Assembly (NCBI GenBank): GCA_964363305.1
Contig: CAYIHX010000005.1
Span: forward strand, 61,702-125,701
From: an uncultured Bacteriovoracaceae bacterium
GTDB taxonomy: Bacteria > Bdellovibrionota > UBA1018
DNA length: 64,000 bases
Reading direction: 5' to 3'
Shown: positions 6,270 through 50,347 of the stretch, piece after piece
How the letters are laid out: the number at the start of each line of letters is the position of its first letter
Numbering within the stretch: the first letter of the stretch is position 1
Position numbers and translations under genes: made by a program
The notes under the pieces: model-generated
What the model saw: only the letters and a program-made list of their open reading frames with translations
What the model was told of the DNA's origin: nothing
The model's database searches: none

Positions 6270-6827
6270 ATGCATTCGCCACCTGAAATCCAGGGATTAA
6301 AAATCATTCTGCGGCCCATGTCGTTAGAGTATGTTACACCTCGCTATCTCGGGTGGCTCTCAGACCCAACGGTGACGCGACATTTAAGTACTTCAAACTA
6401 CACAATCGCTCAGCTCACGACCTACGTCGAGGAACGTATTGAGCAGCCGAACATCTGTTTTTGGGCAATCATCGAGCGATCGAGTGGCATGCATATCGGC
6501 AATGTAAAACTTGAGCCGATCGTCCTGGAGAGTTCACGCGCAACCTTTGGTATTCTCATTGGCGAGAAGGATTTCTGGGGAAAAGGCATCGCAACGGAGG
6601 TCGCGGTTCTGGTAGCAGATTTTGCGTTTCAGAGCCTCGGTCTGAGCAAAGTTGACCTGGGCGTTCAGGATGCGAACGCGGCCGCCATTCGAGCGTACGA
6701 AAAAGCGGGTTTCCATGTCGAGGGACGGTTACGTCGGCATAGCCTTGTCGGAGGCTGTCTGCGAGATGTTATCTACATGGCGAAGTTTGCAGATGGATCC
6801 AATGCAACAAATTTTCATTCTGTGTAA
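6270..6827 (+). CDS. GNAT family N-acetyltransferase (PseH candidate)
   Basis: About 185 aa with a GNAT core (...FWGKGIATEVAVLVADFAF...YEKAGF). Its position in the Pse locus supports a role in sugar N-acetylation. Confidence 0.65.
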   Translation: MHSPPEIQGLKIILRPMSLEYVTPRYLGWLSDPTVTRHLSTSNYTIAQLTTYVEERIEQPNICFWAIIERSSGMHIGNVKLEPIVLESSRATFGILIGEKDFWGKGIATEVAVLVADFAFQSLGLSKVDLGVQDANAAAIRAYEKAGFHVEGRLRRHSLVGGCLRDVIYMAKFADGSNATNFHSV

Positions 6828-6891
6828 AACGTGATTCACTTTTGGCATCGCTATTATTTTTAGAAAAAAACAGTCAACAGAATTACATGAA

Positions 6892-7656
6892 ATGCACAAA
6901 TTTTCGAGTAAAAGGCCGCAATCCATGCAACCGATAAATGCCTATACAGCACAATCTAAACACTCCCCTCTTAGCTGTTTAGCCGTTATTGGCGCCACGT
7001 CAGGAATCGGAAAAGCATTTTTTGACTACTGTGAAAAACAATCAGTTAACCATCTTATTTCCATTTCAAGAAGAAAAAGGCCACCTCAGTCGAATCCACG
7101 TTTTGAGGAGATAGAAATTGACCTTGCATCAAGCGAGTCGGTGCAAGCGGGCTGCCAACGTCTTGGAGTGATGTCATTAAAAGGAGAACGGGCAGTAGGC
7201 GTTTTGGTTAGTGCCGCCACAATAGATCCAATCAATAGCTCATTGACGGTCGCCTCAGATGCATTTGATAGGGCCTTTCTTGTCAATTGCTTGAGTCCGT
7301 TAAAAATACTGCGCACAATTATTCAGGTCTCTATGGAAGCTGAAACACGCCTTCGCGTAGTATATCTCGATACGGGGGCGGCAGATCGACCCATTTTGGG
7401 CTGGGGAGCATATTGTGCCTCTAAGGCGGCGATGCGCATGGCGTTACGAGTTATGGCAGCCGAAGCCGACCCTGAGCGAGTGCAGATTGATTTCTTTGAT
7501 CCAGGGATAGTTGATACCCCTATGCAAGAACAGATTCGAAACTCAGATAGACATGAATTTCCTGATCGTGAAACATTTCGCGCATACAAAAATGAAGGAA
7601 AACTTAGAGATGCCGAAAGCGTTGCTTTGGATATCTGGGAGCGGTTCTGCTCCTGA
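6892..7656 (+). CDS. Short-chain dehydrogenase/reductase (SDR)
   Basis: Gly-rich NAD(P) motif VIGATSGIGKAF and a YxxxK-type segment (YCASKAA). The true start is probably an internal Met (about 6925). Confidence 0.65.
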   Translation: MHKFSSKRPQSMQPINAYTAQSKHSPLSCLAVIGATSGIGKAFFDYCEKQSVNHLISISRRKRPPQSNPRFEEIEIDLASSESVQAGCQRLGVMSLKGERAVGVLVSAATIDPINSSLTVASDAFDRAFLVNCLSPLKILRTIIQVSMEAETRLRVVYLDTGAADRPILGWGAYCASKAAMRMALRVMAAEADPERVQIDFFDPGIVDTPMQEQIRNSDRHEFPDRETFRAYKNEGKLRDAESVALDIWERFCS

Positions 7657-7771
7657 CGATCGTTTCGTTCTTAGCGATAGCTGCTACCTATGGGTGATGA
7701 GTGAACTAATGAACTTGAGACAAAGTTGACAAGTTCACAACAAACTGGAGATATCAGAGCAGTAATGCGAA

Positions 7772-8830
7772 TTACCCAATCAGATCCCAGCTCAAGGGAG
7801 TTCCTCGCTCAACCGAACGGTTGACCCGTTTCCCCAGTACTAGATCCATCTGGCTTGGAGGGAGGCCCATGCCCGGTCGGATCGTTCGAATATTCTCTGT
7901 CGTCAGTGTCTCACCCGATTTCAAATCGGTCACGATGTAGATGGAGCGGCGGTATTTCAAGGATGCTTTTTCTTTGCCGTTGGGGCCGTAGCTCACCTTG
8001 CCAATGGCTTGCCAGCCACGTTCTGTCTCGATGACCAGCTGGCGAAGTTCTTCAGGCTCTAGGGAAAACGCAGAATCCACACCGCCATCCGCGCGGGCCA
8101 GCGTAAAGTGTTTCTCGATGATTGTAGCTCCCATCGTGACGCTCGCGACTGAAACTCCAATTCCCATGGTGTGGTCGGAGAGGCCCACCTGTAGATCAAA
8201 AAGTGATCTCATATGGGGAATAGTAGAAATATTCGTGCTCTCAGGAGTCGTCGGGTAGGTGCTCGTACATTTTAAAAGCACAAGGTTTTTGCAGCCCGCC
8301 TCACGTGCAGCGCGTACCGTTTCATCCAACTCAGCAATGCTCGCCATCCCGGTTGAAATAATCATCGGTTTTCCGGTTTTTGCGATCTTGCGGATCAAAG
8401 GAATATCCGTGTTCTCGAAAGAAGCCACCTTGTAGAGCGGCACGTTGAGTTTTTCTAGGAACTCGACGGCCGAGTCATCAAAGGGGGTGCTAAAACCGAT
8501 CATTCCGTGATCGCGGCACCGATCAAAGATGGGCTTGTGCCACTCCCAAGGCGTGTAAGCCTGCTTGTATAAATCGTAAAGGGTTTGGCCTTTCCAAAGG
8601 CTTCCCTCATCATTGATTGCAAAGTTGCCAGAACTCAAATTTAACGTCATCGTGTCTGCCGTGTAGGTCTGAATCTTGAGCGCATGCGCCCCAGCCTTAG
8701 CTGCGGCATCGACGATTGCCAAAGCTCGTTCGAGCGAGTGGTTGTGGTTCCCCGACATCTCCGCGATGACGAAAGGTCGGGACTCCGAGCCAATAGTTTT
8801 TCCTTCGACGGTGAATGAATGGCTACCCAT
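7772..8830 (-). CDS. pseI: Pseudaminic/N-acetylneuraminic acid synthase family (NeuB/PseI) with C-terminal SAF domain
   Basis: FVIAEMSGNHNHSLERALAIVDAAAKAGAHALKIQTYTADT is the canonical NeuB/PseI N-terminus, about 352 aa. Confidence 0.85.
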   Translation of the reverse strand: MGSHSFTVEGKTIGSESRPFVIAEMSGNHNHSLERALAIVDAAAKAGAHALKIQTYTADTMTLNLSSGNFAINDEGSLWKGQTLYDLYKQAYTPWEWHKPIFDRCRDHGMIGFSTPFDDSAVEFLEKLNVPLYKVASFENTDIPLIRKIAKTGKPMIISTGMASIAELDETVRAAREAGCKNLVLLKCTSTYPTTPESTNISTIPHMRSLFDLQVGLSDHTMGIGVSVASVTMGATIIEKHFTLARADGGVDSAFSLEPEELRQLVIETERGWQAIGKVSYGPNGKEKASLKYRRSIYIVTDLKSGETLTTENIRTIRPGMGLPPSQMDLVLGKRVNRSVERGTPLSWDLIG

Positions 8831-9818: not shown

Positions 9819-10520
9819 TTAGCAGTTTCGTCTGAGAATCTCATGTAAATAGGGACAAAACGGGTCAAGGTGCCGCGCTTCATCCTCCAGGAGAGACGGA
9901 TCATAGACCGTCCGCCTGAGTCCAAAGGTGCGACGCGAAGTATCCAGAATCCCCCAGCTGGCGACCATACCCTGATCTCTTGCTTGACCGACGGAGCCGA
10001 CATTAGCGATGAGGGTTCCTGCTCTCTCCCGAATAAAAGGGCGGTGGGTATGGCCCATGAAAACGAAATGTGCTCCTTCGATAAAGCAGCGATCGATCAC
10101 TTCTTGCGGTGCATCAGGGTAGACGTAGAAGTCTCGATCCCAAGGTGATCCATGGCAAAGCTCAATCTTCAGCCCATCGAGTTCAATCGAGCGGCGGGCC
10201 GGCAATGACGCAAGCCAGGACAGCTCATCCTGAGAGAGAGATCTTAGCGCTACGTCGATGCCACTTCCATACCTCTTTCGGATCTGGTCCGCGAGAACTT
10301 CATTCCCAGCTGCCGCCATGAGCATTGCTTCGTGATTGCCCGCGATCACATCTGACGGCCATTCTGTGAGCATCTTGAGGACAGAGTCCGGCCGACAGTA
10401 GTAGCCAACTAAGTCTCCCAGAACGAAAAGGCGCTCTACCCCTAAGCGGCGGCACTCATCTAACACACGGCCCAAAGCGATATCATTGCCATGAATGTCA
10501 GAGAGAACAGCAATGATCAT
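9819..10520 (-). CDS. Metallophosphoesterase (calcineurin-like, YfcE-type)
   Basis: MIIAVLSDIHGNDIALGRVL...GDLVGYY...GNHE...GHTHRP metal-binding motifs. Confidence 0.65.
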   Translation of the reverse strand: MIIAVLSDIHGNDIALGRVLDECRRLGVERLFVLGDLVGYYCRPDSVLKMLTEWPSDVIAGNHEAMLMAAAGNEVLADQIRKRYGSGIDVALRSLSQDELSWLASLPARRSIELDGLKIELCHGSPWDRDFYVYPDAPQEVIDRCFIEGAHFVFMGHTHRPFIRERAGTLIANVGSVGQARDQGMVASWGILDTSRRTFGLRRTVYDPSLLEDEARHLDPFCPYLHEILRRNC

Positions 10521-11623
10521 CGTGGCACCGGCGCCAGCGCATCCAAGATTCGCTGGCAGCCCAAGCCATCTACCATCTTAGTGGAATTGATTTCGATCTG
10601 CGTGAGTTGATCTGGCTGAGCGATCAAGGTGATGAGGGCTTCTCGGATTTGTTCTTCGGTCACGTCAGAGGAGGGCCCTAGATCAACGACGGCACCCATT
10701 TTCGCCATGCACTTTGCCAAAGGTACTTGATTGTCTGCGATGGAAACGACAACACCTGGAAGGCCGAGGCAGCATCTTTCCCAGGTTGTAGTCCCGCCTG
10801 CACCGACATACAGATCTGCGCTCACCATTAGCGCGGCCATATCTTTGATGTTAAAGTGGGTCCGTGCTCCCGGTATCTCGAGAGCTATTGATTCAATGGA
10901 TGCTCGGTGAGGATTCAAAGAACCGATGACGATGTCAATTTGTACATTCGCAAACGGAATCGTCCGAAGGGCCTGAAGAGCCTTGCCTGTTTCATTCTTT
11001 GGATCAGCGCCTCCAAAAAAAACTAAAATGCGGTTGACCCTCCCCCGACGATGACGAATCTGGGCGCGGGCCTCGACAAACTGACGTCGCAAGATTGCGA
11101 AACGAGGACCCAGTAGCTTCTGGCAATGATCGCTAACGCGCAGATCATAGCGCGTCTCGAAATTCTCGTAGAGATTTTGGTCAACGAGAACATCGCAATC
11201 ATGATCCCGATCCGCAAGATCATCAATTACGAGAACCCGATCCACTAACGAACGGACCGCCGATTCCCATGATCGATCGATCGCGTAGTGATCTACCACT
11301 AGCCAGTTCTGCGAGCCTCTTTCCCGGCTAATGACTTCACGAGTTTCTTCAATATCCCGCGGTATGCCAACACCGAGCCAGTGGGCGTGAGGAACAGAAA
11401 AGCTGGGTACGTCAACTGGTTTATGTGGCGCTGGGAGTAGTTTTATCTCAAACCCCTCGGACTCCACGAGTGCTTTGGGGGATTGCTGAGAATCTCGGCA
11501 AATAAAAACCGTCCGAACCCCCTGACTCCTCATGCTATTCGCAAATGCCAGACAGCGCATGAGGTGCCCCAGTCCCATGAACGGGGAGGCGTCGACACGA
11601 ATGAATGCGGTAATGTCGCTCAT
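10517..11623 (-). CDS. pseG: UDP-2,4-diacetamido-2,4,6-trideoxy-L-altropyranose hydrolase (PseG, GT28-like)
   Basis: IRVDASPFMGLGHLMRCLAFA is the PseG N-terminal signature. A 4-nt overlap with the upstream gene indicates an operon. Confidence 0.8.
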   Translation of the reverse strand: MSDITAFIRVDASPFMGLGHLMRCLAFANSMRSQGVRTVFICRDSQQSPKALVESEGFEIKLLPAPHKPVDVPSFSVPHAHWLGVGIPRDIEETREVISRERGSQNWLVVDHYAIDRSWESAVRSLVDRVLVIDDLADRDHDCDVLVDQNLYENFETRYDLRVSDHCQKLLGPRFAILRRQFVEARAQIRHRRGRVNRILVFFGGADPKNETGKALQALRTIPFANVQIDIVIGSLNPHRASIESIALEIPGARTHFNIKDMAALMVSADLYVGAGGTTTWERCCLGLPGVVVSIADNQVPLAKCMAKMGAVVDLGPSSDVTEEQIREALITLIAQPDQLTQIEINSTKMVDGLGCQRILDALAPVPR

Positions 11624-39358: not shown

Positions 39359-39547
39359 AGAGCCTACTGGAGAGTGGGTCTTTATCGTCGCTCGTGCTGC
39401 TCACGTTTTGGCGAGGCAGGAGATCAATACGATCATATGGATATTCGTGACATTTGGGGTGTGTATCCCCATGTAGAGGATAAAATCCATACTATCGTAT
39501 ATGTTTTATTGTTTTTGATGTTCGATTTGCGTCAAAATGAGAACTAT

Positions 39548-39563
39548 CTATACGATCGTATAG
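39548..39563. promoter_or_regulatory. Perfect 16-bp palindrome ctatacgatcgtatag (candidate HipB operator), with a related half-site copy at about 39489..39502
   Basis: Read directly. It lies about 18 bp upstream of the hipB start in an AT-rich leader. A second similar site, atactatcgtatat, sits 45 bp upstream. Confidence 0.4.
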
Positions 39564-39580
39564 AAAATGGGGTGTAGACC

Positions 39581-39832
39581 ATGCAGGTAATGACCAACAA
39601 ACGGGGATCGCCTCTCGCGGAAGTACTGCTCAGGCGCCGACGGGCACTGGGTATTACTCAGGAGCAACTGGCCAAATTTGCAGAATGCAGTGTTCCTTAC
39701 ATCTACTTGCTGGAGAGTGGAAAAACCACCGTTCGTATCGACAAGCTGATCGCCGTTCTCTCGGTTCTAGGGCTTCAGTTAAGGGTAGAGGCCGGTAAAG
39801 AAGGGCTGAAAATCGACGAGAAACTCAAATGA
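39581..39832 (+). CDS. hipB: XRE-family HTH antitoxin/regulator, HipB-like
   Basis: LRRRRALGITQEQLAKFAECSVPYIYLLESGK is an XRE HTH. It has a 4-nt overlap (ATGA) with the downstream hipA. Confidence 0.7.
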   Translation: MQVMTNKRGSPLAEVLLRRRRALGITQEQLAKFAECSVPYIYLLESGKTTVRIDKLIAVLSVLGLQLRVEAGKEGLKIDEKLK

Positions 39833-41070
39833 CCTGGGAGGAGATCAAGCACGTCAATACCGCTGATGTTTTTAGAGACTCGGTCTTGGTGGGAAAGATT
39901 TCGCGTATAGATCGGGGATCGGCTTTTGAGTACGACACAAATTACCTGGAGGGAGCGGACCGCGGCGGCGGAATCGCGTTTCATCTTCCTCATTTACGGA
40001 GAAGGCATGAGACGTCGGGAGTGAATCTCCACACCTACTTCGCGGGTCTTCTCCCTGAGGGCCTTCGCTTGAGAGCCTTGACGAAGCGGATGAAGACCTC
40101 GGAAGACGATCTCCTGAGCTTGCTGATTGCCACGGGTGGCGATTGCATCGGTGATGTTTCAGTTGTTCCTGAAAATCAACAACCCTCGAAGAAGGCGGTG
40201 CCTACGGTCGAGGTAAAAAATTTGAGAAAAGTCGTGTTCGCTGAGCTCTTCGAGCGAAGCATCGACTATGATGCGACTCAAAGTCCGGAACCTGAATCCA
40301 GCATCCCCGGTGTGCAGGAAAAAATATCAGCCGCGACGATTTCTTTTCCTGTGAAAACAAAAAAGACTCATGGTTCGTTTATCTTGAAACTCAATCCTCC
40401 CGACAAGCCGCGACTTGTTGAAAATGAGGATTTTTTTCTTCGCATGGCCAGAGCCTGTGGCCTCGAAGTGCCGAATGCCAAGCTTGTCAGGGACCGAGAA
40501 AACAATACCGGAATTTTGATCGAGAGATTTGACCGGATCCTTGTCCCCAAGGATCGGACGACTTTGAAGGTGCATCAGGAGGACGCCTGCCAGTTTCTTA
40601 ATCGCTACCCGTCTGAAAAATATCGCATCAAGTGCTCGGAAATCGCGGAAGGCCTCGCTGAATTTTGTTCCAGCTCTTCAGTGGAAACCTCGCGTTTCAT
40701 TCGTCTGCTTGCGTTTTCGTACCTGATTGGAAACGGGGATTTGCATGCGAAGAACGTCAGCGTTCAAGTCAAACCAGATACAAACGTCGTTACGATGACC
40801 CCGGCCTACGACCTTCTGACTACCTTGCCTTATGGTGATTCCCGAATGGCGCTTCAGTTCGAGGGACGGAGCGATAATTTCAAGAGGGCTTACTTCGTTG
40901 ATTTCGGTGAAAGATACGGAGTGAATAGAGCGATGACCCAATCGATCCTTGACGAGGTTTGCTCCCAGTCACAGTGCTGGGTGGATCGAGTGGGCGAAAT
41001 CGGTTTAGCCGCGAAAAAGACGGCGCAACTTAAATCTCTCATGAGAAAACGTCTCCTGGATCTCCGCTAA
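39829..41070 (+). CDS. hipA: HipA-family serine/threonine kinase toxin
   Basis: HipA N- and C-domain organisation. The catalytic loop IGNGDLHAKNVSV matches the D-x-H-x-K-N motif, about 413 aa. Confidence 0.8.
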   Translation: MTWEEIKHVNTADVFRDSVLVGKISRIDRGSAFEYDTNYLEGADRGGGIAFHLPHLRRRHETSGVNLHTYFAGLLPEGLRLRALTKRMKTSEDDLLSLLIATGGDCIGDVSVVPENQQPSKKAVPTVEVKNLRKVVFAELFERSIDYDATQSPEPESSIPGVQEKISAATISFPVKTKKTHGSFILKLNPPDKPRLVENEDFFLRMARACGLEVPNAKLVRDRENNTGILIERFDRILVPKDRTTLKVHQEDACQFLNRYPSEKYRIKCSEIAEGLAEFCSSSSVETSRFIRLLAFSYLIGNGDLHAKNVSVQVKPDTNVVTMTPAYDLLTTLPYGDSRMALQFEGRSDNFKRAYFVDFGERYGVNRAMTQSILDEVCSQSQCWVDRVGEIGLAAKKTAQLKSLMRKRLLDLR

Positions 41071-41160
41071 TTCGAGGTAAAGGGCGAATCGCCTCCGGGC
41101 TGGGCAGTGGGAGCTTGAGGTAGTCCTGGCCGCTTTCTGGATCGCGACTGATTTCATGAA

Positions 41161-41748
41161 TTGGTTGAGGCGGCCCGAGATTGTCGGTATATCCACGGAA
41201 TGCAAAAGTCTCTCGAGACCGATCGTCTCATTTTGCGTCCCTTGAAATTGAGCGATTATGCCTTCGTGCGCACGCTTCATACAGATCCGAAAGTGATGCG
41301 CTACATTGCAAGCGGGCCCGCCAGGTCGGAAGCCCAAACGCGGGAGTCCATTCAAAAGTCTCTCGCCATGAAAGAGGCAAATCCATGCCTGGGAACCTGG
41401 ATCGCGGAGCTGCGCGAAACTCAGGTGACGATGGGGACATTGATTTTGAGAACACCCGCTACGGCCGAAAAGACCGAGGGCATTGAGATTGGCTTTATTT
41501 TCGCCGCCGAACACTGGGGCAAGGGTTACGCGACCGAAGCGTCCCGCCGGTTGATCCAGTATGTGCATGATGCCCTGGGTGATGTGCGTATCGTGGCGCT
41601 GATCAATGCCGCGAATCAGGCCTCGAGAAATACGCTTCAGAAGCTTGGCTTCAAGACCGTCGGCACCACCGAATACGTGAATCCCGTCGGGGGCGAGGTT
41701 CTGCCCAGCGAGATCCTTGAGTACCAGACCTTAGACCCCACTCCATAA
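41161..41748 (+). CDS. GNAT N-acetyltransferase (RimJ/RimL-like)
   Basis: TDRLILRPLKLSDYAFVRTLHTDPKVMRYI...FIFAAEHWGKGYATEA...LQKLGF is a RimJ/L-type GNAT. The likely start is MQKSLETDRL (about 41200). Confidence 0.7.
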   Translation: MVEAARDCRYIHGMQKSLETDRLILRPLKLSDYAFVRTLHTDPKVMRYIASGPARSEAQTRESIQKSLAMKEANPCLGTWIAELRETQVTMGTLILRTPATAEKTEGIEIGFIFAAEHWGKGYATEASRRLIQYVHDALGDVRIVALINAANQASRNTLQKLGFKTVGTTEYVNPVGGEVLPSEILEYQTLDPTP

Positions 41749-42011
41749 ATGGCAGACAATTATGGAGCATGCTCAAGAGACGTCTGCTGGTTGATCAGTA
41801 CTCCAGTTTTTTGGCTGAACTGCACGCGGCCTGAGCGGATATAGCTTCCGGGAATTCGTTTTTCATCGAATAGAAGCGGAGCTTTGCGCGGCTCGATCAA
41901 GGGTTACGTAGTTTTTTGAGGGACGGTCCTTTAGGCAGAGGGTTCTGAGAAAGAAGCTCTTTCCGCATTGACGGGGTTCGAGGAGAAGGGCGACGTGTTC
42001 TTGGAAGTGGC

Positions 42012-42058
42012 ATATATGTTCAATTATTGCAGTCTGAGTGCAATAATTGAACATATAT
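42012..42058. repeat. Perfect AT-rich inverted repeat with 20-bp arms and a 7-nt spacer
   Basis: atatatgttcaattattgca-gtctgag-tgcaataattgaacatatat, read and reverse-complemented by hand. It lies in a 466-bp intergenic region of an otherwise GC-rich genome. Confidence 0.6.
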
Positions 42059-42215
42059 AACTTCTGATTTGGGGGGATTGCGATCGTGCCAGTAGGGACG
42101 AGAAGTCAGCGTTCTGAGCGAAAGGGGCTCTGGTTCGGCGTAGCTGGTGGTTTTGACATCGGCCAGTCAGTGGGTCAGGATTGGGACATAAGCGGACCTG
42201 TTGGGAAGGTAGTCA

Positions 42216-42626
42216 ATGCCAAAGAAGAAGAATGACAAGAGAGCTGAAATCCATCCTTGGCGGCCTTGCCCAGCAGGTGAGCACTGGGTCGCGACTCACT
42301 CATTGCAGATTCCTCCAAGTGGCAGACATCCCGCCGGCACCGTAACGACCCGGCACGCGCATTGTGCATTGAATCCTTCGAAGAAAGATCAACTCTATCC
42401 TGCGGAAATTCATGAAATCGCCGTTCGGCATTTTTTGAAATTGGAGAAGATGCCCTGCCCACTTGCTCTAAAGTTTGGCAAAGAGGGGAACGCGTATGAT
42501 GATCTCATTGCCGGTTGGGTTCAGTATCCGAACCTTTTCAAGGCTCTCGTCGCTTCGGAGTCCAGATTCAAACCAGACATTTTAGCCGACAAGAAAAATC
42601 AGAACAGCAGCGTGCCAAGGAGCTGA
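42216..42626 (+). CDS. Hypothetical protein
   Basis: 136-aa ORF with a Lys-rich N-terminus (MPKKKNDKR) and no recognisable domain. ggaaggtag precedes the ATG. Confidence 0.4.
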   Translation: MPKKKNDKRAEIHPWRPCPAGEHWVATHSLQIPPSGRHPAGTVTTRHAHCALNPSKKDQLYPAEIHEIAVRHFLKLEKMPCPLALKFGKEGNAYDDLIAGWVQYPNLFKALVASESRFKPDILADKKNQNSSVPRS

Positions 42627-42663
42627 TGGGCCGCTTCCTAGGATACCTGGAGGAGTATAAGAA

Positions 42664-43221
42664 ATGTGGCAAGTCCTCATCATAGGTCTGTTCGCGCCTT
42701 TCACGGTGAATGCCGAGGTGCCATCGGCGCACTTGGGCGCGAGGTTTCCGTATGGCCTTCTTGGGGATGACTTCGGGCTCCTCGCGGCATGCATTGCCAC
42801 ACCCGAGCCTTTCTCACCTGACTCTACCGAGTACCCCTACTGGCAGTGCTTTTCGGTCCAAGAGGCATCCTTTGAATGCGACAGCACGGGCTATGACGGG
42901 AGTGAAAAGTCAGTCATGGCGATCATGGCCATTGTCGCTCGGAAAAACGGCGAAGAGCATGAATACCTATCTCGACGGGCGATTCCCATGAAAGGGTGTC
43001 GCGCCCATGAGAGTGAATGGAAAAAACTGACGGCGCGCCGAAAACATGTCTGTCTGTCGGGGGCACTGATCAGGATTGAGACGACCACGGAGGGGAAGAG
43101 CGTCGGACACTGGATCTTTGAAGCACTCAAGACCGACAAAGGGTGCGATTCCTATTTCGCCGGGGGATGCGATTTAAAGTACCAGGTGAAACACGGGTGC
43201 GAGATCGCGCGGAGGAATTGA
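42664..43221 (+). CDS. Secreted cysteine-rich hypothetical protein
   Basis: Signal peptide MWQVLIIGLFAPFTVNA and about 10 Cys including CDSTGY, KGC, GGCDLKYQVKHGC. ggaggag lies 6 nt upstream. Confidence 0.5.
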   Translation: MWQVLIIGLFAPFTVNAEVPSAHLGARFPYGLLGDDFGLLAACIATPEPFSPDSTEYPYWQCFSVQEASFECDSTGYDGSEKSVMAIMAIVARKNGEEHEYLSRRAIPMKGCRAHESEWKKLTARRKHVCLSGALIRIETTTEGKSVGHWIFEALKTDKGCDSYFAGGCDLKYQVKHGCEIARRN

Positions 43222-43269
43222 AGAGTTCGCTTTTCCAACTTGCCAGGCCCTCGCGATGAGGCGACACCA

Positions 43270-43788
43270 TCACCCCAGTTCGTCGAATAGCTCTTCCAGA
43301 AAAAACTGCGTCTTGGCGGGGATCGCTTTTCGTGGGTAATAATTTTCGATGAGTTCAAAAACTTGTTCTGGGCTTTTGATTTTAAAAAAACGGATGAGGG
43401 TTTTGAGATCTTGAGCGTCGTGGGTGTCGAAGCGAGCGCTGATCGCTTTCATCGCAAGCAGGTAAGGAGTGGGAGGAATCCAGACCGTGAGGTGAGGCAG
43501 GTCGAGGATGACTTGTCTTGGGCTGGAGTTGGCCGGCATGAACCCTTTGACGGCGTCGTTAATCCAGTCGTTGGGGAGCCCGAGTCGAGGGGCGATCCGC
43601 GCCGCGGCTTCCCGAATCTGAGACGAAGGCTCGAAAATGGCGTCGACATCTTTCGTGGCTTTCCTTGCGTTGAAGGCTAGCACCATCGCTGCACCGCCCA
43701 CGATGCCGATCTCGCCTCGTAGTCCCTCTTTCGAAAGTTCTTCCTCAAGTCGGTGAAGTGCCTGAATGATCTGATCCTGAGTCATGTT
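43270..43788 (-). CDS. Minimal nucleotidyltransferase with an AbiEii-like GG[ST]A-x(n)-R-x-[ST]-x-D-[IV]-D motif
   Basis: GIVGGAAMVLAFNARKATKDVDAIFEP resembles the AbiEii/DUF1814 NTase motif, but the protein is only about 171 aa. The likely start is MTQDQII (about 43788). Confidence 0.55.
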   Translation of the reverse strand, partial: NMTQDQIIQALHRLEEELSKEGLRGEIGIVGGAAMVLAFNARKATKDVDAIFEPSSQIREAAARIAPRLGLPNDWINDAVKGFMPANSSPRQVILDLPHLTVWIPPTPYLLAMKAISARFDTHDAQDLKTLIRFFKIKSPEQVFELIENYYPRKAIPAKTQFFLEELFDELG

Positions 43789-43792
43789 TTTT

Positions 43793-44173
43793 CTATACTC
43801 GGTTGAGAAAATTTCCCAAGACGAAGATATTATTTTGCCTGAAAGGGGTTGGGCTTTCCTGAAGCGCACTGGCTTTCAGATTTTCTATTCCAGAGACGAA
43901 GTAAGGTGCAGGTAGAAACTGGGGGCGCGTTGCCCACCATGGTTCGGGAATGTCGAGTTCTTGTGCCAGCGCTCGGGCGGTCGCATTGATGACCGCGCGC
44001 TCTCGCGTTCGCCGGGAGCGCGAGTAAAGGCGTTTCAATGCTTCGAATGTGCGGGTGCGACGAGCCTCATCGACCGCATCAAAGAAGGGCACCCAATCGG
44101 TGAGGTCACGACGCGGGGGGCGTCCGGCTTTTCTGGTGAGGCGTGGTGCCGGGAGCATACGAGGGTGACTCAT
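43793..44173 (-). CDS. Small Arg-rich basic protein upstream of the NTase (candidate partner or DNA-binding component)
   Basis: 126-aa ORF with N-terminus PRLTRKAGRPPRRDL (AT-hook-like). It abuts the NTase gene with a 4-nt gap. Confidence 0.4.
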   Translation of the reverse strand: MSHPRMLPAPRLTRKAGRPPRRDLTDWVPFFDAVDEARRTRTFEALKRLYSRSRRTRERAVINATARALAQELDIPEPWWATRPQFLPAPYFVSGIENLKASALQESPTPFRQNNIFVLGNFLNRV

Positions 44174-44279
44174 CTCTTCAGGGTAGATGATTTCGTGAAT
44201 TAAGGCAATTATGTATAACTATATAATATTACGTGATTATATCATATTATCGATTTGCTCCATCTGAAAGAACCTTGAG

Positions 44280-44327
44280 TATACAATACACCGAATCGAC
44301 ATAAGTGTCGATTCGGTGTATTGTATA
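44280..44327. repeat. Perfect inverted repeat with 22-bp arms and a 4-nt spacer in a divergent promoter region
   Basis: tatacaatacaccgaatcgaca-taag-tgtcgattcggtgtattgtata. It lies between the divergent genes at 44173(-) and 44548(+), flanked by a very AT-rich stretch (44195..44270). Confidence 0.6.
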
Positions 44328-44547
44328 AATATGACAGAACGGCACTCATTTCTCTCGGTCTCCAAAAATCATTCAGACATCCGAGCCGAAACAAACGGAG
44401 ACGACGCAGAGATGGAAACTCTCTTTGAGTTTGGCGAATAGCGAGTCGCTTCTGCATACAAAAATCGAGTTTTCCCGTCGGCAGGCGGCCCGCCATGCGA
44501 TTTGACGCTGGAGAGGGGGTGGTTGATCAGTTGGAGAAGATGAAGTC

Positions 44548-45171
44548 ATGAATCTGGTCGACGCTTTCTCCAGACTGCGGGGACTCAAGCCGGGTACCTT
44601 TCAGACCTCGGATGCGGCAGTTTGCCTGGGGGTCACTCGGGGTGCCGCTAGCAAGATTCTCTCGCGGCTCGCCGACCGTAAGCTTCTGGTTTGCTTGACC
44701 CGCGGGCGGTGGGGGATGGCTGGAAAAGTGGATCGTCTGGCCGTACCCGAGGCGCTCACGGCGCCCTGGCCGAGTTACGTTTCCTTGCAGAGTGCGCTGT
44801 TCCACCATGGAATGATTGAGCAGATCCCGGAGGTGATTTATGCCGTCTCTCTGAGTCGCGCTCGTCGATTCGAAAACGCGCTCGGAGTGTATTCCATTCA
44901 TCAGGTGCAGCCCGATTTTTTTTGGGGATTTGATACGGTGGGCCCGCAGGGACTGAAAATCGCCACGCCGGAGAAAGCTTTGCTCGACGTGCTTTATCTC
45001 AGCACCGCGCGATCTAGGCTCTTCAAGAGACTGCCCGAGCTTGAGCTGACAAAAAAATTCAGTGTCAAGCGGGCCCGTGAAATGATCGGGCGGATCAAAT
45101 CACCCCAGCGCCGCAGTCTCGTGGCCTCTCGGTTTGAGGCGATGATTCTAAATCTAAAGAGGGCGCGGTAA
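44548..45171 (+). CDS. AbiEi-like antitoxin/transcriptional regulator (N-terminal wHTH, AbiEi_4-type)
   Basis: FQTSDAAVCLGVTRGAASKILSRLADRKLLVCLTRGRWGMAG matches the AbiEi N-terminal pattern, about 207 aa. Confidence 0.6.
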   Translation: MNLVDAFSRLRGLKPGTFQTSDAAVCLGVTRGAASKILSRLADRKLLVCLTRGRWGMAGKVDRLAVPEALTAPWPSYVSLQSALFHHGMIEQIPEVIYAVSLSRARRFENALGVYSIHQVQPDFFWGFDTVGPQGLKIATPEKALLDVLYLSTARSRLFKRLPELELTKKFSVKRAREMIGRIKSPQRRSLVASRFEAMILNLKRAR

Positions 45172-45199
45172 GGCGAGATGGAAGTCCGGATGCGCGCCA

Positions 45200-46114
45200 C
45201 TAAAATAAGAATATTTCGCGCGAACCGGATCGAATGAGTTCCCGTATGTCAGGCGTCTCATCGAGGACGATTCGATGGACCCGACAGTAACGGGACCAGG
45301 GGCCGGGCACGGCTCGGTCGCATAAGATGGGGGAGCGCAGTGTAATCGACTGAACTTTGGATGTTGATCGAGCTGCTATTCGGTCTCGAAAAAGGTCATA
45401 TCCGGTTTGAGTGGAAAAAAAGTAGGCTCGTTTCTCATAGAGATCTCTCAGTTGGTCGGAAGATTCACCAGAACTGATGCGTAGGGCCTCTACATTTCTT
45501 AGAAGCTCGATCTTTGCGTGAGCTAATGCTTCGGTTTCATTTGCCCTACAAGAGAAGCCAAATGCGTAACGTCCGGGCGCGTATGTGTTTTGAATCAAGG
45601 CGAAATAGTAGGTGTGGGAGTCAAAGTAAATTTGAGCGCCGAACGTATCTTGGGTTCTGAAATCTCGTTGGAGGGAGATGGATCCACGCCAGGCATTGAG
45701 GAGGACGTGTCGCTCGAGAGCCTCGCATAAGGCGTGCTGACGACAGGCCTTGAGGTCCGAAACTCCACGTGCAGCCATCCCATGTGTAGAGGTGGACCAG
45801 TCGAGGGCAAGTTGGCTCTTTCGAGAACTGTCCGGCGAGGACATGCATTCAACGAAAGCCCACCGTTCCATCGCCTCAAAGATGGCCTTTCGAATGGAGT
45901 GAATCCGGCTTGCATCGGTTCCACAGCCAGGTGCTGAGCTGTAGAGCAGGCTATGCGGCGCAAGCGAGTGGAGAAGGTCGGGGTGAATCCATGCGGAAGC
46001 TTGCCAGAAGTTTTCTGATTTGAGTTGAATGGTGGTAATTTTAGAAATGGGTCCGGTGGGCAGCGTGGATTGAAAAAGGCGTAAATCGTTTTGGAGCTGT
46101 TTGAAGATACTCAC
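45200..46114 (-). CDS. Short YcaO-domain protein
   Basis: Two YcaO hallmark motifs. GCGTDASRIHSIRKAIFEAMER resembles E. coli YcaO GKGATKKAALASALGEYFER. GMAARGVSDLKACRQHALCEALER resembles SAGNTRNEARVQGLSEVFER. It is about 304 aa and overlaps the upstream SBP gene by 4 nt. Confidence 0.6.
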   Translation of the reverse strand: MSIFKQLQNDLRLFQSTLPTGPISKITTIQLKSENFWQASAWIHPDLLHSLAPHSLLYSSAPGCGTDASRIHSIRKAIFEAMERWAFVECMSSPDSSRKSQLALDWSTSTHGMAARGVSDLKACRQHALCEALERHVLLNAWRGSISLQRDFRTQDTFGAQIYFDSHTYYFALIQNTYAPGRYAFGFSCRANETEALAHAKIELLRNVEALRISSGESSDQLRDLYEKRAYFFSTQTGYDLFRDRIAARSTSKVQSITLRSPILCDRAVPGPWSRYCRVHRIVLDETPDIRELIRSGSREIFLF

Positions 46115-47565
46115 TCATAGAGCCCTAGGAAATGAAGTGCGGTCGGTGGTTGAATCGTATTCAGTAAGCTTGCGTCTACTCTCTTTGATACCCAAATTCC
46201 GGGTCGGAAATGAGCAAGGGGGAGGACTAGGGCGTCTTCCTTGAGGTTTTTTTCTATTGCTGCGAAGTCCACCTTTTCTTGGTCGAGAATTTTAGAAATT
46301 TTCCCGGTAGGGTCGGGCAATTGAATACCTTCCTTAGACCTGAACATGAATCGGACGTCATCTTCCGGGTATTCCAGCAAGACCCCGGAAGAGAGAGTGA
46401 TGAGATCAACCGCGGGATCCGCTGGGTCTGAAAAATGACGAAATAATTCCTGGGGGCGAATCGGAATCTCGATCAAGTGAATCTTGTTTTTCGAGCAGAC
46501 GCTTCTGAGTGCGTCAAAAAATGACATAATTGCTTTGTTTTGGGTGGTTCGAACCCCAATACGAAGTGTTTTCGTCGCTGTTGGGCGGATCCTTGCCTCG
46601 GCGTGGGAGTGCTGCGCTTCTGGAGAAACGGGGAGGAGTCGATCCGGGATGAGGATATTTCGGATTCGTATCTCACCGGCAATCGCGTCGAAGAGCCAGC
46701 GCCGGTTTTCTTGGCTGGCGCAGAAGGATTGAATGTCATGACTCGAAACACAGCGCACGAAGCTGAAGTTTGAAACGGCGCCGCCGAGAAATGAATACTT
46801 CGATTTTTCCGGCATGGACAGGATGTCGAGGTCGGTTCCTGGAATCACATCGGAAGAACCGGATTCTTGCTGGGAAACAGCAATTTCGTGTGGCGATTTC
46901 GGATGCCTCCAGTCAGACGGAAAGGCGGAGAGATCTCGGAGTTCGAGGGTGTAAGAATTTTGAGTCCAACTCTTGATGCGGTAGGGTCCGGAGGCGATTG
47001 CAGTTTGGGGGTTTCGCCATGTCAGCGATTTTGGATCAAAGTCTTTCTCGGAACAAATGGCATATTGCCCGAAAGAAAGAAAATCGAGAAGACGTGGGAT
47101 AGGTTTCTTGAGCTGAATCTCGAGGGTAAATTTCTTGTCGTCGGCTTTAAATTTCGCCACGTGTTCGAGAAAACCGGCATTTGATTTTTTCCGAGCGAGA
47201 ACGGCCGAAGCGCGTCTCCAGCACTTCTCGATCGACGAAGGCAGGAGGGGTTCACCGTCATCAAAGTGTAGTCCTGAGCGGATATGGAATAACCATCGGA
47301 GGCCGTCTGGCCCGACCTGCCACGAGGAGGCAATCATTCCCGTGGGCTCGCCGAGTTTGTACTGTGTGACGAGGGTAGCGAGAACAGGCGACTGAGTCAC
47401 GTGGTGGACATGATAGTCAAATTCAAGTGGGTCGGTGGAAAAAGGCATGGACTCGAGCCTTACCTGGAGAGGCTGAGTATCGTGCCGTTCAGAGGTGCAG
47501 TGTGTCGTCGTTAGAAATATTAAGGAGAGGATACCGATTGAAAGCCCGAATCGCGCATTTTCCAT
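46111..47565 (-). CDS. Family-5 extracellular solute-binding protein (peptide/oligopeptide SBP type), secreted
   Basis: Signal peptide MENARFGLSIGILSLIFLTTTHC and SBP_bac_5 architecture over about 484 aa. No adjacent ABC permease or ATPase genes. Confidence 0.7.
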   Translation of the reverse strand: MENARFGLSIGILSLIFLTTTHCTSERHDTQPLQVRLESMPFSTDPLEFDYHVHHVTQSPVLATLVTQYKLGEPTGMIASSWQVGPDGLRWLFHIRSGLHFDDGEPLLPSSIEKCWRRASAVLARKKSNAGFLEHVAKFKADDKKFTLEIQLKKPIPRLLDFLSFGQYAICSEKDFDPKSLTWRNPQTAIASGPYRIKSWTQNSYTLELRDLSAFPSDWRHPKSPHEIAVSQQESGSSDVIPGTDLDILSMPEKSKYSFLGGAVSNFSFVRCVSSHDIQSFCASQENRRWLFDAIAGEIRIRNILIPDRLLPVSPEAQHSHAEARIRPTATKTLRIGVRTTQNKAIMSFFDALRSVCSKNKIHLIEIPIRPQELFRHFSDPADPAVDLITLSSGVLLEYPEDDVRFMFRSKEGIQLPDPTGKISKILDQEKVDFAAIEKNLKEDALVLPLAHFRPGIWVSKRVDASLLNTIQPPTALHFLGLYE

Positions 47566-47763
47566 GTGTGTGAAGTATGCACCCTACGAGCGATGAATAC
47601 CCCAGCATTTTCTGAGCCAGAACCTTCGCTTTTTGTACTTTCTGAAACACTTTGCGTGAGTGGATGAAGTTTCTCGCTCGCTTGCGAGAGTCCAAAAAAA
47701 GACAATAAAACCAAAAGATAAGGAGAAGATAGCTTCTCATGTCTGACCTCGGGAGTTGGTTTA

Positions 47764-48930
47764 TTGCATTTAATGCGATATGTCAAATTTGTGTTTTTTC
47801 CAGAACGTCGGCTCCCGATAGGTAGGCGCTCTCTATTGGCCTTTTTGGCAATTGTATTGCTTGGGCTTCTTTCAATTGCGTCGATTCGCTTTGATCAGAT
47901 TCGAGAGGGAGACCAGCTCGAGCTGGTTCTTCCTCGCGCCATTCGAGGTGCGTTAGATAACTCGACTCGGCCTTCCGATCTGATTGTTTCCGTGGGGCGG
48001 ACGCTCGATATTTTTCATTGGAAACGGGTAGAGATTTGGAAAAAAGACGAGCTGCTCTTTGAGAGAAGGAGGGGTTGGAGTTTACCCGTGTTTTTGCTTC
48101 GGGAACTGAGAATTCAGCCTACGCCAAGTGATCCCCAGTTATTTCTCAAGGTTTGGATTCCGCCTAACTTTGAAAATGGTTTCGTTTTTTCTCTGTTTAT
48201 CGTTTTAGCCGCTGCGGGAGTTTGGATCATTGTCCGGTTGCAGTTTGAATGGAACGAGCGGTTGATGGCGGCGCGGGCTGAGTACTTTCATTTGGCGAAG
48301 CAAACCGCTCATGATTTGCGGTCGCCTGTCGGCGCATTGAGGATACTGGTCCGGTCGGCCGGGGGCAGCATAGAGCCAGAGCTTCGCACACTATTGGAAT
48401 CCGCTGTCCGTAGTATCGGACAGATTTCTGATTCCCTGCTCTTGAAGTCCAATGCCTCGCGGGGCGCCAGTATTTCTGAAATTGAATTGCAGCTACGAAA
48501 GGTGATTGATCTTAAGAAGCTGGAATGGAGCTTGGGGCCGAGCATTGCTATGGAGGTCGAACACGAGATAGCCGACGCCACTACCTGTTTTAGGATGCCA
48601 CACGGCGGGCTGGATTCGATTCTTTCCAATCTTCTCAATAACGCGAAGGAGGCGGGGCATCCATTGGATCGACCGATTTTGGTTCGGATGGTGAGTTCGG
48701 CGGGTGAGCTACGGGTTGAAGTGGTTGATGCCGGGAAGGGAATTCCTGTGGGAGTGTTGAAGTCTCTTCTGAAGGGTGAAAGCGGGGTATCGACCAAGCA
48801 ATCCGGAAATGGATTGGGTTTGTCAGGTGCCATGAAAAAGATGAGAGAGGTCGATGGTCGGCTCGAACTCGATTCGGAGGACGGAGTGGGTACTCGAGTT
48901 CGGCTGTATTTTTCAGAGAATGGAGTTTGA
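47764..48930 (+). CDS. Sensor histidine kinase with periplasmic loop (orphan; no adjacent response regulator)
   Basis: Two TM segments flank a loop of about 120 aa. H-box AHDLRSPVGAL, N-box LSNLLNNAKEAG and G-boxes DAGKGIP / GNGLGLS. Confidence 0.75.
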   Translation: MHLMRYVKFVFFPERRLPIGRRSLLAFLAIVLLGLLSIASIRFDQIREGDQLELVLPRAIRGALDNSTRPSDLIVSVGRTLDIFHWKRVEIWKKDELLFERRRGWSLPVFLLRELRIQPTPSDPQLFLKVWIPPNFENGFVFSLFIVLAAAGVWIIVRLQFEWNERLMAARAEYFHLAKQTAHDLRSPVGALRILVRSAGGSIEPELRTLLESAVRSIGQISDSLLLKSNASRGASISEIELQLRKVIDLKKLEWSLGPSIAMEVEHEIADATTCFRMPHGGLDSILSNLLNNAKEAGHPLDRPILVRMVSSAGELRVEVVDAGKGIPVGVLKSLLKGESGVSTKQSGNGLGLSGAMKKMREVDGRLELDSEDGVGTRVRLYFSENGV

Positions 48931-49973: not shown

Positions 49974-50066
49974 ATGAATGTCACCCCGCTGAAGAATGCA
50001 TATGCGTCGTTGGAAGAAGTTTTGGCTCAGCCCTATAACGACTTTATTCGAGACGCGAGAGTATGA
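49974..50066 (+). pseudogene. Possible 30-codon remnant of a HEPN (HI0074-like NTase-substrate-binding) gene
   Basis: MNVTPLKNAYASLEEVLAQPYNDFIRDARV* resembles the N-terminus of HI0074-family proteins (...kkAlerLeEal...iirDa..) but stops after 30 codons. Its stop overlaps the MNT start (ATGA). Confidence 0.25.
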
Positions 50067-50347
50067 ACGATCAGGTGGCAGGATCAGGAGTGACTCCGCC
50101 GCAGCGAGATCTCATTCTCAAGTCAAAAGTGCTCCTGTTCGGCTCGCGCGCCAAAGGCTCGGCGCGGCAGTATTCAGATTTGGATCTCGCCCTCCAACCC
50201 AGTCGGTCGCTCACTTCAGCGCAGCTGCGGGCCATTCGAGAAATTTTTTCAGAGAGCGATCTCCCTTTTTTGGTCGACTTGGTGATATGGGAGGATCTGG
50301 ATCCCGAATTTCAGAAGTTGATTGAGCGGGAGTGTGTCGAGTTTTAA
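50063..50347 (+). CDS. Minimal nucleotidyltransferase (MNT/MntA-like, Pol-beta superfamily)
   Basis: LLFGSRAKGSARQYSDLDLAL is the GS-x(n)-D-x-D NTase motif, about 94 aa. Confidence 0.7.
   Translation: MNDQVAGSGVTPPQRDLILKSKVLLFGSRAKGSARQYSDLDLALQPSRSLTSAQLRAIREIFSESDLPFLVDLVIWEDLDPEFQKLIERECVEF

Follow-up and report, generated by a model that had tools for sequence, protein, structure and literature searches.

The window analysed here is a stretch of 64,000 nucleotides from an uncultured Bacteriovoracaceae bacterium of the Bdellovibrionota (contig CAYIHX010000005.1, positions 61,702 to 125,701), and its part from 45200 to 48930 carries a gene for a YcaO-like protein, a gene for a family-5 solute-binding protein (SBP), a small precursor-like ORF and a divergent gene for a sensor histidine kinase. 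The first, second and fourth of these were named in a preliminary description made from the sequence alone, and we confirmed that all three ORFs are real and lie where it had placed them. The YcaO-like protein (45200..46114, minus strand) has 304 aa and a GTG start, with no predicted signal peptide or TM segment, and is referred to as a mini-YcaO since it represents a stand-alone, minimal YcaO domain. Its score with Pfam PF02624 (IPR003776) is 27.9 bits against a gathering score of 25.7, which is marginal, and only residues 108-150 are aligned; phmmer and profile searches against PDB sequences found no YcaO. However, both motifs noticed in the preliminary description exist, namely GCGTDAS...AIFEAMER (E80/E83/R84) and GMAARG...CEALER (E131/E134/R135). 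In an hhalign alignment E131/E134/R135 fall on E199/E202/R203 of E. coli YcaO, while E80/E83/R84 correspond to E75/E78/R79 by motif. The E202A variant served as the control enzyme in the E. coli uL16 thioamidation co-expression assay (PMC13063428).

The SBP gene (46111..47565, minus strand) encodes 484 aa, and its stop codon overlaps the start of the mini-YcaO gene (GTGA), so that the two form an operon and are translationally coupled. PF00496 scores 66.2 bits against a threshold of 32.4. The AF2 model (pLDDT 83) is predicted to have the two-lobed cluster-C fold and matches MppA, CntA, NikA, OppA and DppA over its full length, with Foldseek E~1e-24 and TM~0.7 to the first four over about 500 columns. 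The hydrophobic segment at residues 6-20 is conserved, as homologues align from residue 7-8 and mostly carry N-terminal hydrophobic segments, and this favours the 484-aa start over the 445-aa start used by a public gene caller. The segment looks like a signal-anchor or atypical lipoprotein signal rather than a cleanly cleaved signal peptide. The kinase gene (47764..48930, plus strand) encodes 388 aa from TTG 47764, but ATG 47773 or GTG 47791 is the more likely start. It contains a HATPase_c domain (E=4.5e-15), a weak HisKA hit (14.8 bits), and an H-box at H183 in AHDLRSP. Its predicted TMs at 22-41 and 139-157 leave a periplasmic loop of about 97 aa rather than the 120 aa estimated before.

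No permease, ATPase, TfuA, E1-like or dehydrogenase gene lies in 41-53 kb, and no REC-domain gene was detected anywhere in the window with two REC-containing queries. The toxin–antitoxin context proposed in the preliminary description is partly confirmed by HipA at 39829..41070 (E=1.7e-46) and AbiEi at 44548..45171 (PADLOC E=2.9e-27). GC content is 0.50-0.54 across 39.5-48.5 kb against about 0.60 in the flanks.

We further searched for a precursor peptide, which had been thought to be absent, and this claim proved wrong. A profile built from 28 peptides of other loci hits exactly one of 1841 six-frame segments of the window, with E=3.2e-4. The segment belongs to a small ORF at 47520..47786 (minus strand; ..KLSSPYLLVLLSFFGLSQASEKLHPLTQSVSESTKSEGSGSENAG...), directly upstream of the SBP gene as in the homologous loci. 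The aligned stretch, 47613..47708 (minus strand; LLSFFGLSQASEKLHPLTQSV...), covers the end of the hydrophobic leader and the conserved G-x4-A-x3-(D/H) motif, with H in the window where the family has D. The only canonical start in this frame is TTG 47786, which has no SD and overlaps the 5' end of the kinase gene. In contrast, ATG 47740-47738 is preceded by GAGG at 47750-47747, but its frame differs by one base from that of the conserved leader at a T7 run (47694..47700, minus strand; U_UUU_UUG in the ATG frame). This could be a frameshift mutation, a slippage site, or irrelevant if TTG 47786 is used. One extra T, or a -1 slip, would give MRSYLLLIFWFYCLF(F/L)GLSQASEKLHP.... An independent assembly (5 mismatches in 10.5 kb) has the same T7, and no significant RNA structure was found downstream (z=-0.42).

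As a result of searches for relatives, we found that the genes belong to a conserved, apparently undescribed four-gene module present in hundreds of Opitutaceae and Bdellovibrionota genomes, and no paper or curated model was found to cover the family. There are 816 cluster representatives of the mini-YcaO, nearly all of about 300 aa. Among 86 members of 276-330 aa, the E-x-x-E-R motifs and E203 are 100% invariant. The family ends in (E/D)xYF(L/F)(W/F), and the window protein in REIFLF. The window protein is the most divergent member, with six substitutions at positions invariant in all 85 relatives and 25-29% identity to both clades. Moreover, a peptide ORF of 50-70 aa lies upstream of the mini-YcaO in 77 of 85 related loci, and five of the 8 misses lack upstream sequence. 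All 90 profile hits in 1.1 Mb lie upstream on the YcaO strand. The leader is conserved, with 36% ungapped identity and invariant G(-10), A(-5) and D(-1), while the core is hypervariable with 19% identity. In four loci (L076, L022, L079 and L032 in our numbering) the cores are repeated 2-3 times within one precursor, as in multi-core RiPP precursors.

The linkage with the other genes is also conserved. All 7 Bdellovibrionota loci, and 21 of about 22 testable metagenome loci found through the SBP alone, carry the SBP and then the mini-YcaO, usually with a short-loop kinase, and in most of the latter loci the two genes abut. Two tandem SBP genes (locus L100) or four SBP genes, three of them co-directional (L109), can precede the YcaO gene. 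The kinase is found in three arrangements and two phyla. First, it is divergent in the window, and homologous short-loop kinases, with loops of about 90 aa flanked by TMs, lie divergently upstream of the peptide/SBP in L013, L030, L047, L048 and L086 and in 10 metagenome loci. Second, it lies downstream in the same operon in L091 and L094. Third, it is convergent in L089, which has peptide, SBP and kinase but no YcaO within 17 kb. In Opitutaceae there is no SBP; instead, 44 of 49 loci have a divergent propeller-type (Reg_prop) hybrid kinase, whose propeller domain lies between a signal segment and a TM at about 750, and 44 of 49 have a LuxR/GerE regulator. Extra PAS-kinases lie downstream, and there are up to three kinases per locus. 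No response regulator is adjacent in the Bdellovibrionota loci. No ABC permease/ATPase, exporter, immunity gene or TonB receptor is conserved next to the module, and no TfuA was seen in any inspected neighbourhood. An E1-like/Ocin-ThiF/RRE partner and an FMN dehydrogenase are likewise missing from the window and from the conserved neighbourhoods, with the single exception of L090, where a nitroreductase-family gene lies next to the YcaO-like gene.

The interpretation in the preliminary description is partly supported. The short YcaO with an intact ATP/Mg motif set, its operon with an exported family-5 SBP, the kinase without a nearby regulator and the functional link among the three genes all hold, the trio recurring in all testable Bdellovibrionota loci and in metagenome loci found through the SBP, and the outcomes named in advance as refuting it (no YcaO model hit, loss of the Glu/Arg residues, homologues that never co-occur) were not observed. 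Its suggestion of a peptide-sensing/modifying signalling module is the reading our evidence favours, whereas the lack of a precursor peptide and the option of a defence function are not supported, and the toxin–antitoxin islet is local to the window rather than a conserved part of the module.

Our preferred explanation, which remains tentative, is that the module most likely makes and senses a modified peptide signal. In this view the small ORF is translated as a peptide with a Sec-signal-like hydrophobic leader and a variable core, and before export the mini-YcaO would use ATP to activate a backbone amide of it and install an azoline, thioamide or amidine-type modification. The peptide would then reach the periplasm or outside and be bound by the tethered SBP, which would signal to the short-loop kinase. 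In Opitutaceae a roughly 700-aa periplasmic propeller domain of the hybrid kinase would bind the peptide directly and feed the LuxR-type regulator. Of these statements, the analysis shows the small ORF and its conservation, the assignment to the YcaO fold by sequence, and the invariant ATP/Mg residues, while the substrate, ATP-dependent activation, chemistry, export, binding and signalling are all inferred, the last from conserved gene linkage and predicted topology, and for SBP-kinase coupling from adjacency only. Several points weigh against this view. The two core types share no modifiable residue, since Opitutaceae cores have C-x2-4-C and SBP-type cores are Asn/Gly-rich with NNGW or DNGSG, and one common chemistry is thus not obvious. 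The leader has a basic residue at -7, and L/I/V at the would-be P1 in about 20% of cases, so that cleavage by signal peptidase I is not clean. A cytoplasmic enzyme must also act before Sec targeting, and L089 lacks the YcaO. In this particular window, which is an outlier, the circuit may be impaired, as the frame problem of the peptide and the six substitutions at otherwise invariant YcaO positions may mean that the local copy is not functional. If the reading is true, which is possible but less likely than not, the module would be a previously unrecognised class of Gram-negative peptide pheromone systems, in which a Sec-leader RiPP is matured by a minimal, partner-less YcaO and perceived in either of the two ways above, and hypervariable or multi-copy cores would act as pherotypes.

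Among the alternatives, an unlikely but surviving one concerns the window only, where the module may be a decaying remnant, with a frameshifted peptide gene, a drifting YcaO and a locus that no longer works, in a low-GC, toxin–antitoxin-rich island, as would suit an imported, degenerating cassette. The out-of-frame ATG with its SD, the T7 run in both assemblies, the His in place of the conserved Asp and the six YcaO substitutions agree with this. However, the YcaO, SBP and kinase ORFs are intact, all catalytic residues are kept, an in-frame TTG exists, U_UUU_UUG is a plausible -1 slip site, and the divergence could reflect a deep separate lineage. Somewhat less likely, the module makes a RiPP whose primary role is not signalling, such as an antimicrobial or metal-binding peptide; the kinases would merely regulate its production, and the SBP would recapture or sense it, as MbnE does for methanobactin, or protect the producer. 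YcaO plus a leader/variable-core precursor is the classic RiPP layout, Cys-x-x-Pro-Cys cores could bind metals, the nitroreductase-family neighbour in L090 recalls azole-forming clusters, and the best curated matches of the SBP are nickel and metallophore binders (NikA at 1.7e-12 and CntA at 3.4e-8), which are also among its top folds. But these matches are far below family cut-offs and reflect the general fold, SBP-type cores mostly lack Cys and His, no exporter, immunity gene, TonB receptor or ABC importer is conserved, and the density of kinases and the replacement of the SBP by a large sensor domain fit sensing better than production control. It is also doubtful that the small protein is an uncleaved membrane-anchored modulator of the kinase, like MgrB with PhoQ, whose periplasmic tail contacts the SBP or the sensor domain, while the mini-YcaO modifies the SBP pre-protein or the kinase or only chaperones the small protein. 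In its favour, the hydrophobic segment is flanked by basic residues on both sides and is more conserved than ordinary signal peptides, two periplasmic Cys are a feature of MgrB, YcaO enzymes can act on folded proteins (E. coli uL16, PMC13063428), the SBP and YcaO genes are translationally coupled, and L089 keeps the other three genes without a YcaO. However, the YcaO co-occurs with the peptide in both architectures but with the SBP in only one, repeated cores suggest released units rather than a single tail, and the invariant catalytic Glu/Arg argue against a purely structural role. An anti-phage defence or toxin-antitoxin-associated system is very unlikely despite the neighbouring HipA and AbiEi, since PADLOC gave no match for the YcaO, SBP or kinase, the conserved neighbours are signal-transduction genes, and among the other loci only L047 has a HipA-like ORF, judged by N-terminal sequence alone.

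Compared with known systems, the azoline-forming YcaO cyclodehydratases of linear azol(in)e peptide and cyanobactin pathways (McbD of McbBCD, LynD/PatD) differ from the mini-YcaO, which has only about 300 aa and no E1-like/Ocin-ThiF/RRE partner or dehydrogenase in conserved positions. The SagD-type model TIGR03604 gives 18.9 bits for the window protein and 15-21 bits for family members against a cut-off of 219, and the C-terminus lacks the Pro-rich PxPxP motif reported for such enzymes (Dunbar 2014). The leader here is hydrophobic and signal-like, and SBP-type cores mostly lack Cys. No TfuA is adjacent as in thioamide-forming YcaO-TfuA pairs, but TfuA-independent thioamidation exists (PMC13063428) and this chemistry is not excluded. 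The partner-independent YcaOs (E. coli YcaO thioamidating uL16, TfuA-less methanogen YcaOs for McrA, bottromycin YcaOs) have 365-586 aa and, apart from the bottromycin YcaOs, modify a housekeeping protein and have no adjacent small ORF (PMC13063428), while here a dedicated small ORF accompanies the enzyme. The ComQXPA (Bacillus) and AgrBDCA (Staphylococcus) pheromone systems share the proposed logic and the linkage of a modifying enzyme, a small precursor with variable core and a membrane histidine kinase, and in Opitutaceae also a LuxR/GerE-type regulator like ComA. In our preferred view the module would be such an autocrine/quorum peptide circuit built around a YcaO, but their enzyme is an isoprenyl transferase or the AgrB peptidase, whereas here the hosts are Gram-negative, export appears to use a Sec-like leader, and the SBP-type variant would insert a periplasmic binding protein between signal and kinase. 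Finally, binding-protein-dependent sensor kinases (LuxP-LuxQ, TorT-TorS) likewise have a periplasmic SBP encoded next to a kinase with a small periplasmic loop and no ABC transporter, although LuxP and TorT are not family-5 proteins. The predicted SBP fold matches OppA bound to a Phr pentapeptide (8are) and AapF bound to a signalling molecule (7kz9), but OppA, AapF and MbnE, which are family-5 proteins that bind peptide signals or RiPPs, deliver their ligands to importers, whereas here no permease or ATPase was found in the window region or the homologous loci and the SBP is translationally coupled to a cytoplasmic enzyme.

The three ORFs of the preliminary description are real, and all of them lie exactly at the positions reported there. 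The 304-aa product of 45200..46114 on the minus strand passes the YcaO threshold of Pfam only marginally, with 27.9 bits against 25.7 over residues 108-150. Neither phmmer nor a family profile found any YcaO among the PDB sequences, and only fold comparison and hhalign connected the family to known YcaOs. The profile-sequence alignment places E131/E134/R135 on E199/E202/R203 of the E. coli protein and E203 on E290, while the first motif, G63-x-G65...E80-x-x-E83-R84, matches G59-K-G61...E75-x-x-E78-R79. EcYcaO-E202A was the variant set against wild-type enzyme in the uL16 thioamidation co-expression assay (PMC13063428). The solute-binding protein (SBP), 46111..47565 on the minus strand, scores 66 bits on PF00496, and its predicted structure (pLDDT 83) matches MppA, CntA, NikA, AapF, OppA and DppA over the whole length; its stop overlaps the YcaO GTG start as GTGA. 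The histidine kinase, 47764..48930 on the plus strand, has HATPase_c, an H-box at H183 and TMs at 22-41 and 139-157, so that the predicted periplasmic loop is about 97 aa. No REC domain was found anywhere in the 64-kb window with two REC-containing queries.

We further examined the surroundings of these genes. The contig comes from Hainich groundwater metagenomes. A full-length HipA-family kinase toxin (Couple_hipA + HipA_C, E=1.7e-46) lies 4 kb from the module at 39829-41070 on the plus strand, and a HipA-like ORF, judged by its N-terminal sequence only, also lies upstream of the module in L047 (here and below, L numbers designate the fetched loci). An AbiEi-type antitoxin/regulator (44548-45171, plus strand; PADLOC E=2.9e-27) ends 29 bp from the convergent end of the mini-YcaO gene at 45200 with no AbiEii toxin gene after it, and looks like an orphan AbiEi. 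A DUF6036 nucleotidyltransferase at 43270-43869 on the minus strand is overlapped at its 5' end by an unannotated 126-aa ORF (43793-44173, minus strand), which may be another TA-like pair. GC drops to 0.48-0.55 over 39500-48500, across the TA genes and the module, against about 0.60 on both sides, which is consistent with an acquired island. Farther along, a 94-aa minimal nucleotidyltransferase (50063-50347, plus strand; NTP_transf_2/Polbeta in the public annotation), of the kind often paired with HEPN toxins, sits among polysaccharide-synthesis genes. Promoter and terminator scans were uninformative.

The YcaO belongs to a distinct family, here referred to as "mini-YcaO". A word-indexed search found only 15 relatives at 28-35% identity, all about 300 aa, while a full profile scan of 1.84 billion cluster representatives found 816 at E<=1e-3 and 314 at E<=1e-30, again nearly all of 280-310 aa. 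Among species-representative genomes, relatives were found in 262, most of them Opitutaceae or other Verrucomicrobiota, and seven loci come from Bdellovibrionota. In an alignment of 86 members (276-330 aa, median 297), G63, G65, E80, E83, R84, W85, G112, A115, E131, E134, R135, W142, E203, R229, G238, G271, W273 and R281 are 100% invariant, and the ATP/Mg site is therefore under strict selection. The family lacks a Pro-rich C-terminus and ends in a conserved aromatic ..YF(L/F)(W/F). NCBIfam has no model for it, and the only hit is the SagD-type TIGR03604 at 15-21 bits against a cut-off of 219. The member in the window is the outlier of the family, with 25-29% identity to every clade and substitutions at six positions that are invariant in all 85 others (L43I, A73S, S79F, F104L, P117G and W280H), although all catalytic residues are kept.

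The preliminary description had recognised no precursor peptide, but a precursor-like peptide was in fact missed. In the first neighbourhoods, an ORF of 58-64 aa sat directly upstream of the mini-YcaO, and the five Bdellovibrionota loci with enough flank have an equivalent ORF directly upstream of the SBP. We then built a profile from 28 such peptides and searched six-frame translations of 1.1 Mb of fetched loci. All 90 hits in YcaO-bearing loci lie on the YcaO strand and upstream, 84 of them within 700 nt and 6 upstream of an intervening SBP; 77 of 85 loci have a hit, and five of the eight misses simply lack upstream sequence. The 28 training sequences are included in these counts, but the remaining hits are independent of them, as are the window, two loci of other gene order (L089 and L091) and 13 metagenome loci. 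The peptides match no curated family, and NCBIfam has no model for them.

The leader of these peptides is conserved, with the consensus ..R-L-L-L-G-L-x-S-S-L-L-L-A-x-G-F-x-R-A-A-E-R-(L/F)-D. G at -10 is invariant (73/73), A at -5 occurs in 71/73 and D at -1 in 70/73, while the remainder of roughly 31 aa shows only 19% pairwise identity. Opitutaceae cores usually carry a C-x2-4-C motif such as CTLPC, CTVPCAY or CVPC, which is present in 45 of 83 peptides. In L076 (peptide upstream of 8001), L022, L079 and L032 the Cys-containing core unit is repeated two or three times within one precursor, for example 3 x SSLGCAQLPCYHRDF, which resembles multi-core cyanobactin precursors. One Opitutaceae sub-clade (L023, L029, L060, L062, L064, L066, L069, L078 and L083) has two different precursors in tandem, one ending in C-(I/V)-(I/V)-(P/E)-H and the other Cys-free (..FDPVF(L/F)GGR..ADD..RLS), and a PAS-hybrid kinase lies downstream in the two loci checked, L029 and L078. 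SBP-type cores, in contrast, are Asn/Gly-rich, for example NNGW, DNGSG, SNGGGGGG and GENGSGGW.

In the window, the peptide profile hits exactly one of the 1841 six-frame segments, at E=3.2e-4. The hit is 47613-47708 on the minus strand, LLSFFGLSQASEKLHPLTQSV, immediately upstream of the SBP. The start of this ORF is ambiguous. The only in-frame canonical start is TTG 47786, which has no SD and overlaps the kinase 5' end. ATG 47740 is preceded by GAGG at the right spacing and lies 25-50 bp from the kinase start, like the gaps of 20-80 bp in homologous loci, but it is one base out of frame, and the two frames meet at a T7 run (47694-47700). One extra T, or a -1 slip on U_UUU_UUG, would give MRSYLLLIFWFYCLF(F/L)GLSQASEKLHP.., and an independent assembly of the same population (5 mismatches in 10.5 kb) has the same T7. 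We also tested for a frameshift-stimulating RNA structure downstream of the run, and it was not significant (z=-0.42). All three forward frames of the minus strand are open at 47520-47565, namely the 83-aa ORF, the 88-aa ORF and the SBP start, and a public gene caller therefore chose an 83-aa ORF plus a truncated SBP of 445 aa.

The linkage proposed in the preliminary description would have been refuted if homologues of the genes never co-occurred in other genomes, and this was clearly not the case. All seven Bdellovibrionota loci have an SBP homologue directly upstream of the mini-YcaO, and the alignment starts at SBP residue 7-8, which supports the 484-aa start and its hydrophobic N-terminus. 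The five of those loci with enough flank have a divergent homologous kinase. In one of them, the L013 locus of a Bacteriovoracaceae MAG, the SBP gene is split into two ORFs (6420-7921; 247 + 241 aa), by either a frameshift or an assembly error. We then searched metagenomes with the SBP alone and obtained 29 loci. Of about 22 with sequence downstream of the SBP, 21 encode a mini-YcaO, most of them abutting it, and a kinase is divergent upstream in ten of these loci and downstream in L094. Two tandem SBP5 paralogues in L100 (1072-4058) and four SBP5 genes in L109 (1598-8285), three of them co-directional, precede a single mini-YcaO, suggesting receptor diversification.

Other arrangements also occur. 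In L091/L092, SBP, YcaO, hybrid kinase, HATPase and Hpt lie on one strand, with a peptide-like ORF divergent. L089 has peptide, SBP and a convergent kinase, and a search for a degraded YcaO in its 680-nt gap and across the whole 17.5 kb found none. L090 has an SBP, then a peptide-like ORF, then a nitroreductase-family gene (10435-11448, minus strand) directly next to a mini-YcaO-like gene cut by the contig end; azoline dehydrogenases belong to that family, and it is the only locus with such a neighbour.

Opitutaceae have no SBP. Greedy longest-ORF clustering of neighbourhoods picked antisense ORFs in these GC-rich loci, and targeted tblastn was used instead. Of 49 loci with at least 4.5 kb of upstream sequence, 44 have a divergent hybrid kinase of about 1,250-1,290 aa with Reg_prop repeats, whose N-terminus lies within 1.5 kb, and 44 have a LuxR/GerE regulator beyond it, while three of the other five have a different kinase there. 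Further PAS-kinase-receiver genes follow the YcaO in L019, L029 and L078. T2SSF and a sigma-54 regulator downstream of the YcaO first looked like module members, but they occur in only ten loci of one sub-clade and were rejected as lineage synteny. Two separate copies of the module, L026 and L058, occur on different contigs of the same Opitutaceae MAG (SMAG_U4837), with different peptides and different kinase sensor regions.

As to predicted topology, the mini-YcaO has no hydrophobic segment, and the SBP has one at its N-terminus; some SBP homologues carry a lipobox, such as LAGC in the homologue P0018. The SBP-type kinases have two TMs around a loop of 85-97 aa. Three propeller-type kinases were examined, and in the two where the hydropathy scan found TM segments (L019 and L024; none in L001), a TM lies at about residue 750 after an N-terminal domain of roughly 700 aa, and L019 also has an N-terminal hydrophobic segment. 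By these predictions, both architectures therefore put a ligand-binding module in the periplasm next to a peptide with a signal-like leader.

Taken as a whole, the earlier interpretation is partly supported, since the genes are linked but the supposed lack of a precursor does not hold. Our data establish a conserved module of a leader-bearing small ORF plus a mini-YcaO with an intact ATP site, its tight linkage to sensor kinases in two phyla and at least three gene orders, and the presence of either a transporter-less SBP5 or a large predicted periplasmic sensor domain in every architecture. The functional steps, however, are all inferences: that the mini-YcaO modifies the peptide in the cytoplasm, that the peptide is exported through its hydrophobic leader, and that the SBP or the propeller domain binds it and controls the kinase. 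Against this most likely mechanism stand R/K at -7 and non-small residues at the would-be P1 in about 20% of leaders, the YcaO-less locus L089, and the possibly defective peptide gene in the window, whose copy of the module may be impaired. As for the chemistry, Cys cores, the weak SagD-type hits and McbD as the best fold match hint at azolines, while Gly/Asn cores, the similarity to TfuA-less archaeal YcaOs and the absence of partners leave thioamide or amidine formation possible, and ATP-dependent cleavage is also possible (Zheng & Nair 2022, cited in PMC13063428). The only feature shared by both core types is the G-x4-A-x3-D leader motif, which may be the recognition element.

Modified-peptide quorum sensing is well established in Firmicutes but barely known in Gram-negative bacteria, and YcaO enzymes are studied almost only as antibiotic or cofactor maturases. 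The module is compact, widespread and experimentally tractable, and at least one cultured strain, Horticoccus sp. 23ND18S-11 (L032), carries it. It offers a test case for how a 300-residue YcaO recognises its substrate without an RRE partner, a way to learn which chemistry it installs on two very different core types, and a test of whether a transporter-less SBP5 can hand a peptide signal to a histidine kinase. It also offers candidate cell-cell signals for Opitutaceae and for predatory Bdellovibrionota.

Our literature searches found no description of the module, and no curated model and no defence-system model that we searched describes it. The mini-YcaO does not conform to SagD-type cyclodehydratases in score, partners or C-terminus, nor to YcaO-TfuA pairs. 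The SBP is a member of family 5, but it lacks the transporter that normally defines the family's function. The logic of the proposed circuit resembles that of ComQXPA and Agr. We regard the module, with its function inferred, as a YcaO-dependent RiPP-like system with an unusual minimal enzyme, a signal-like leader and dedicated sensory partners.
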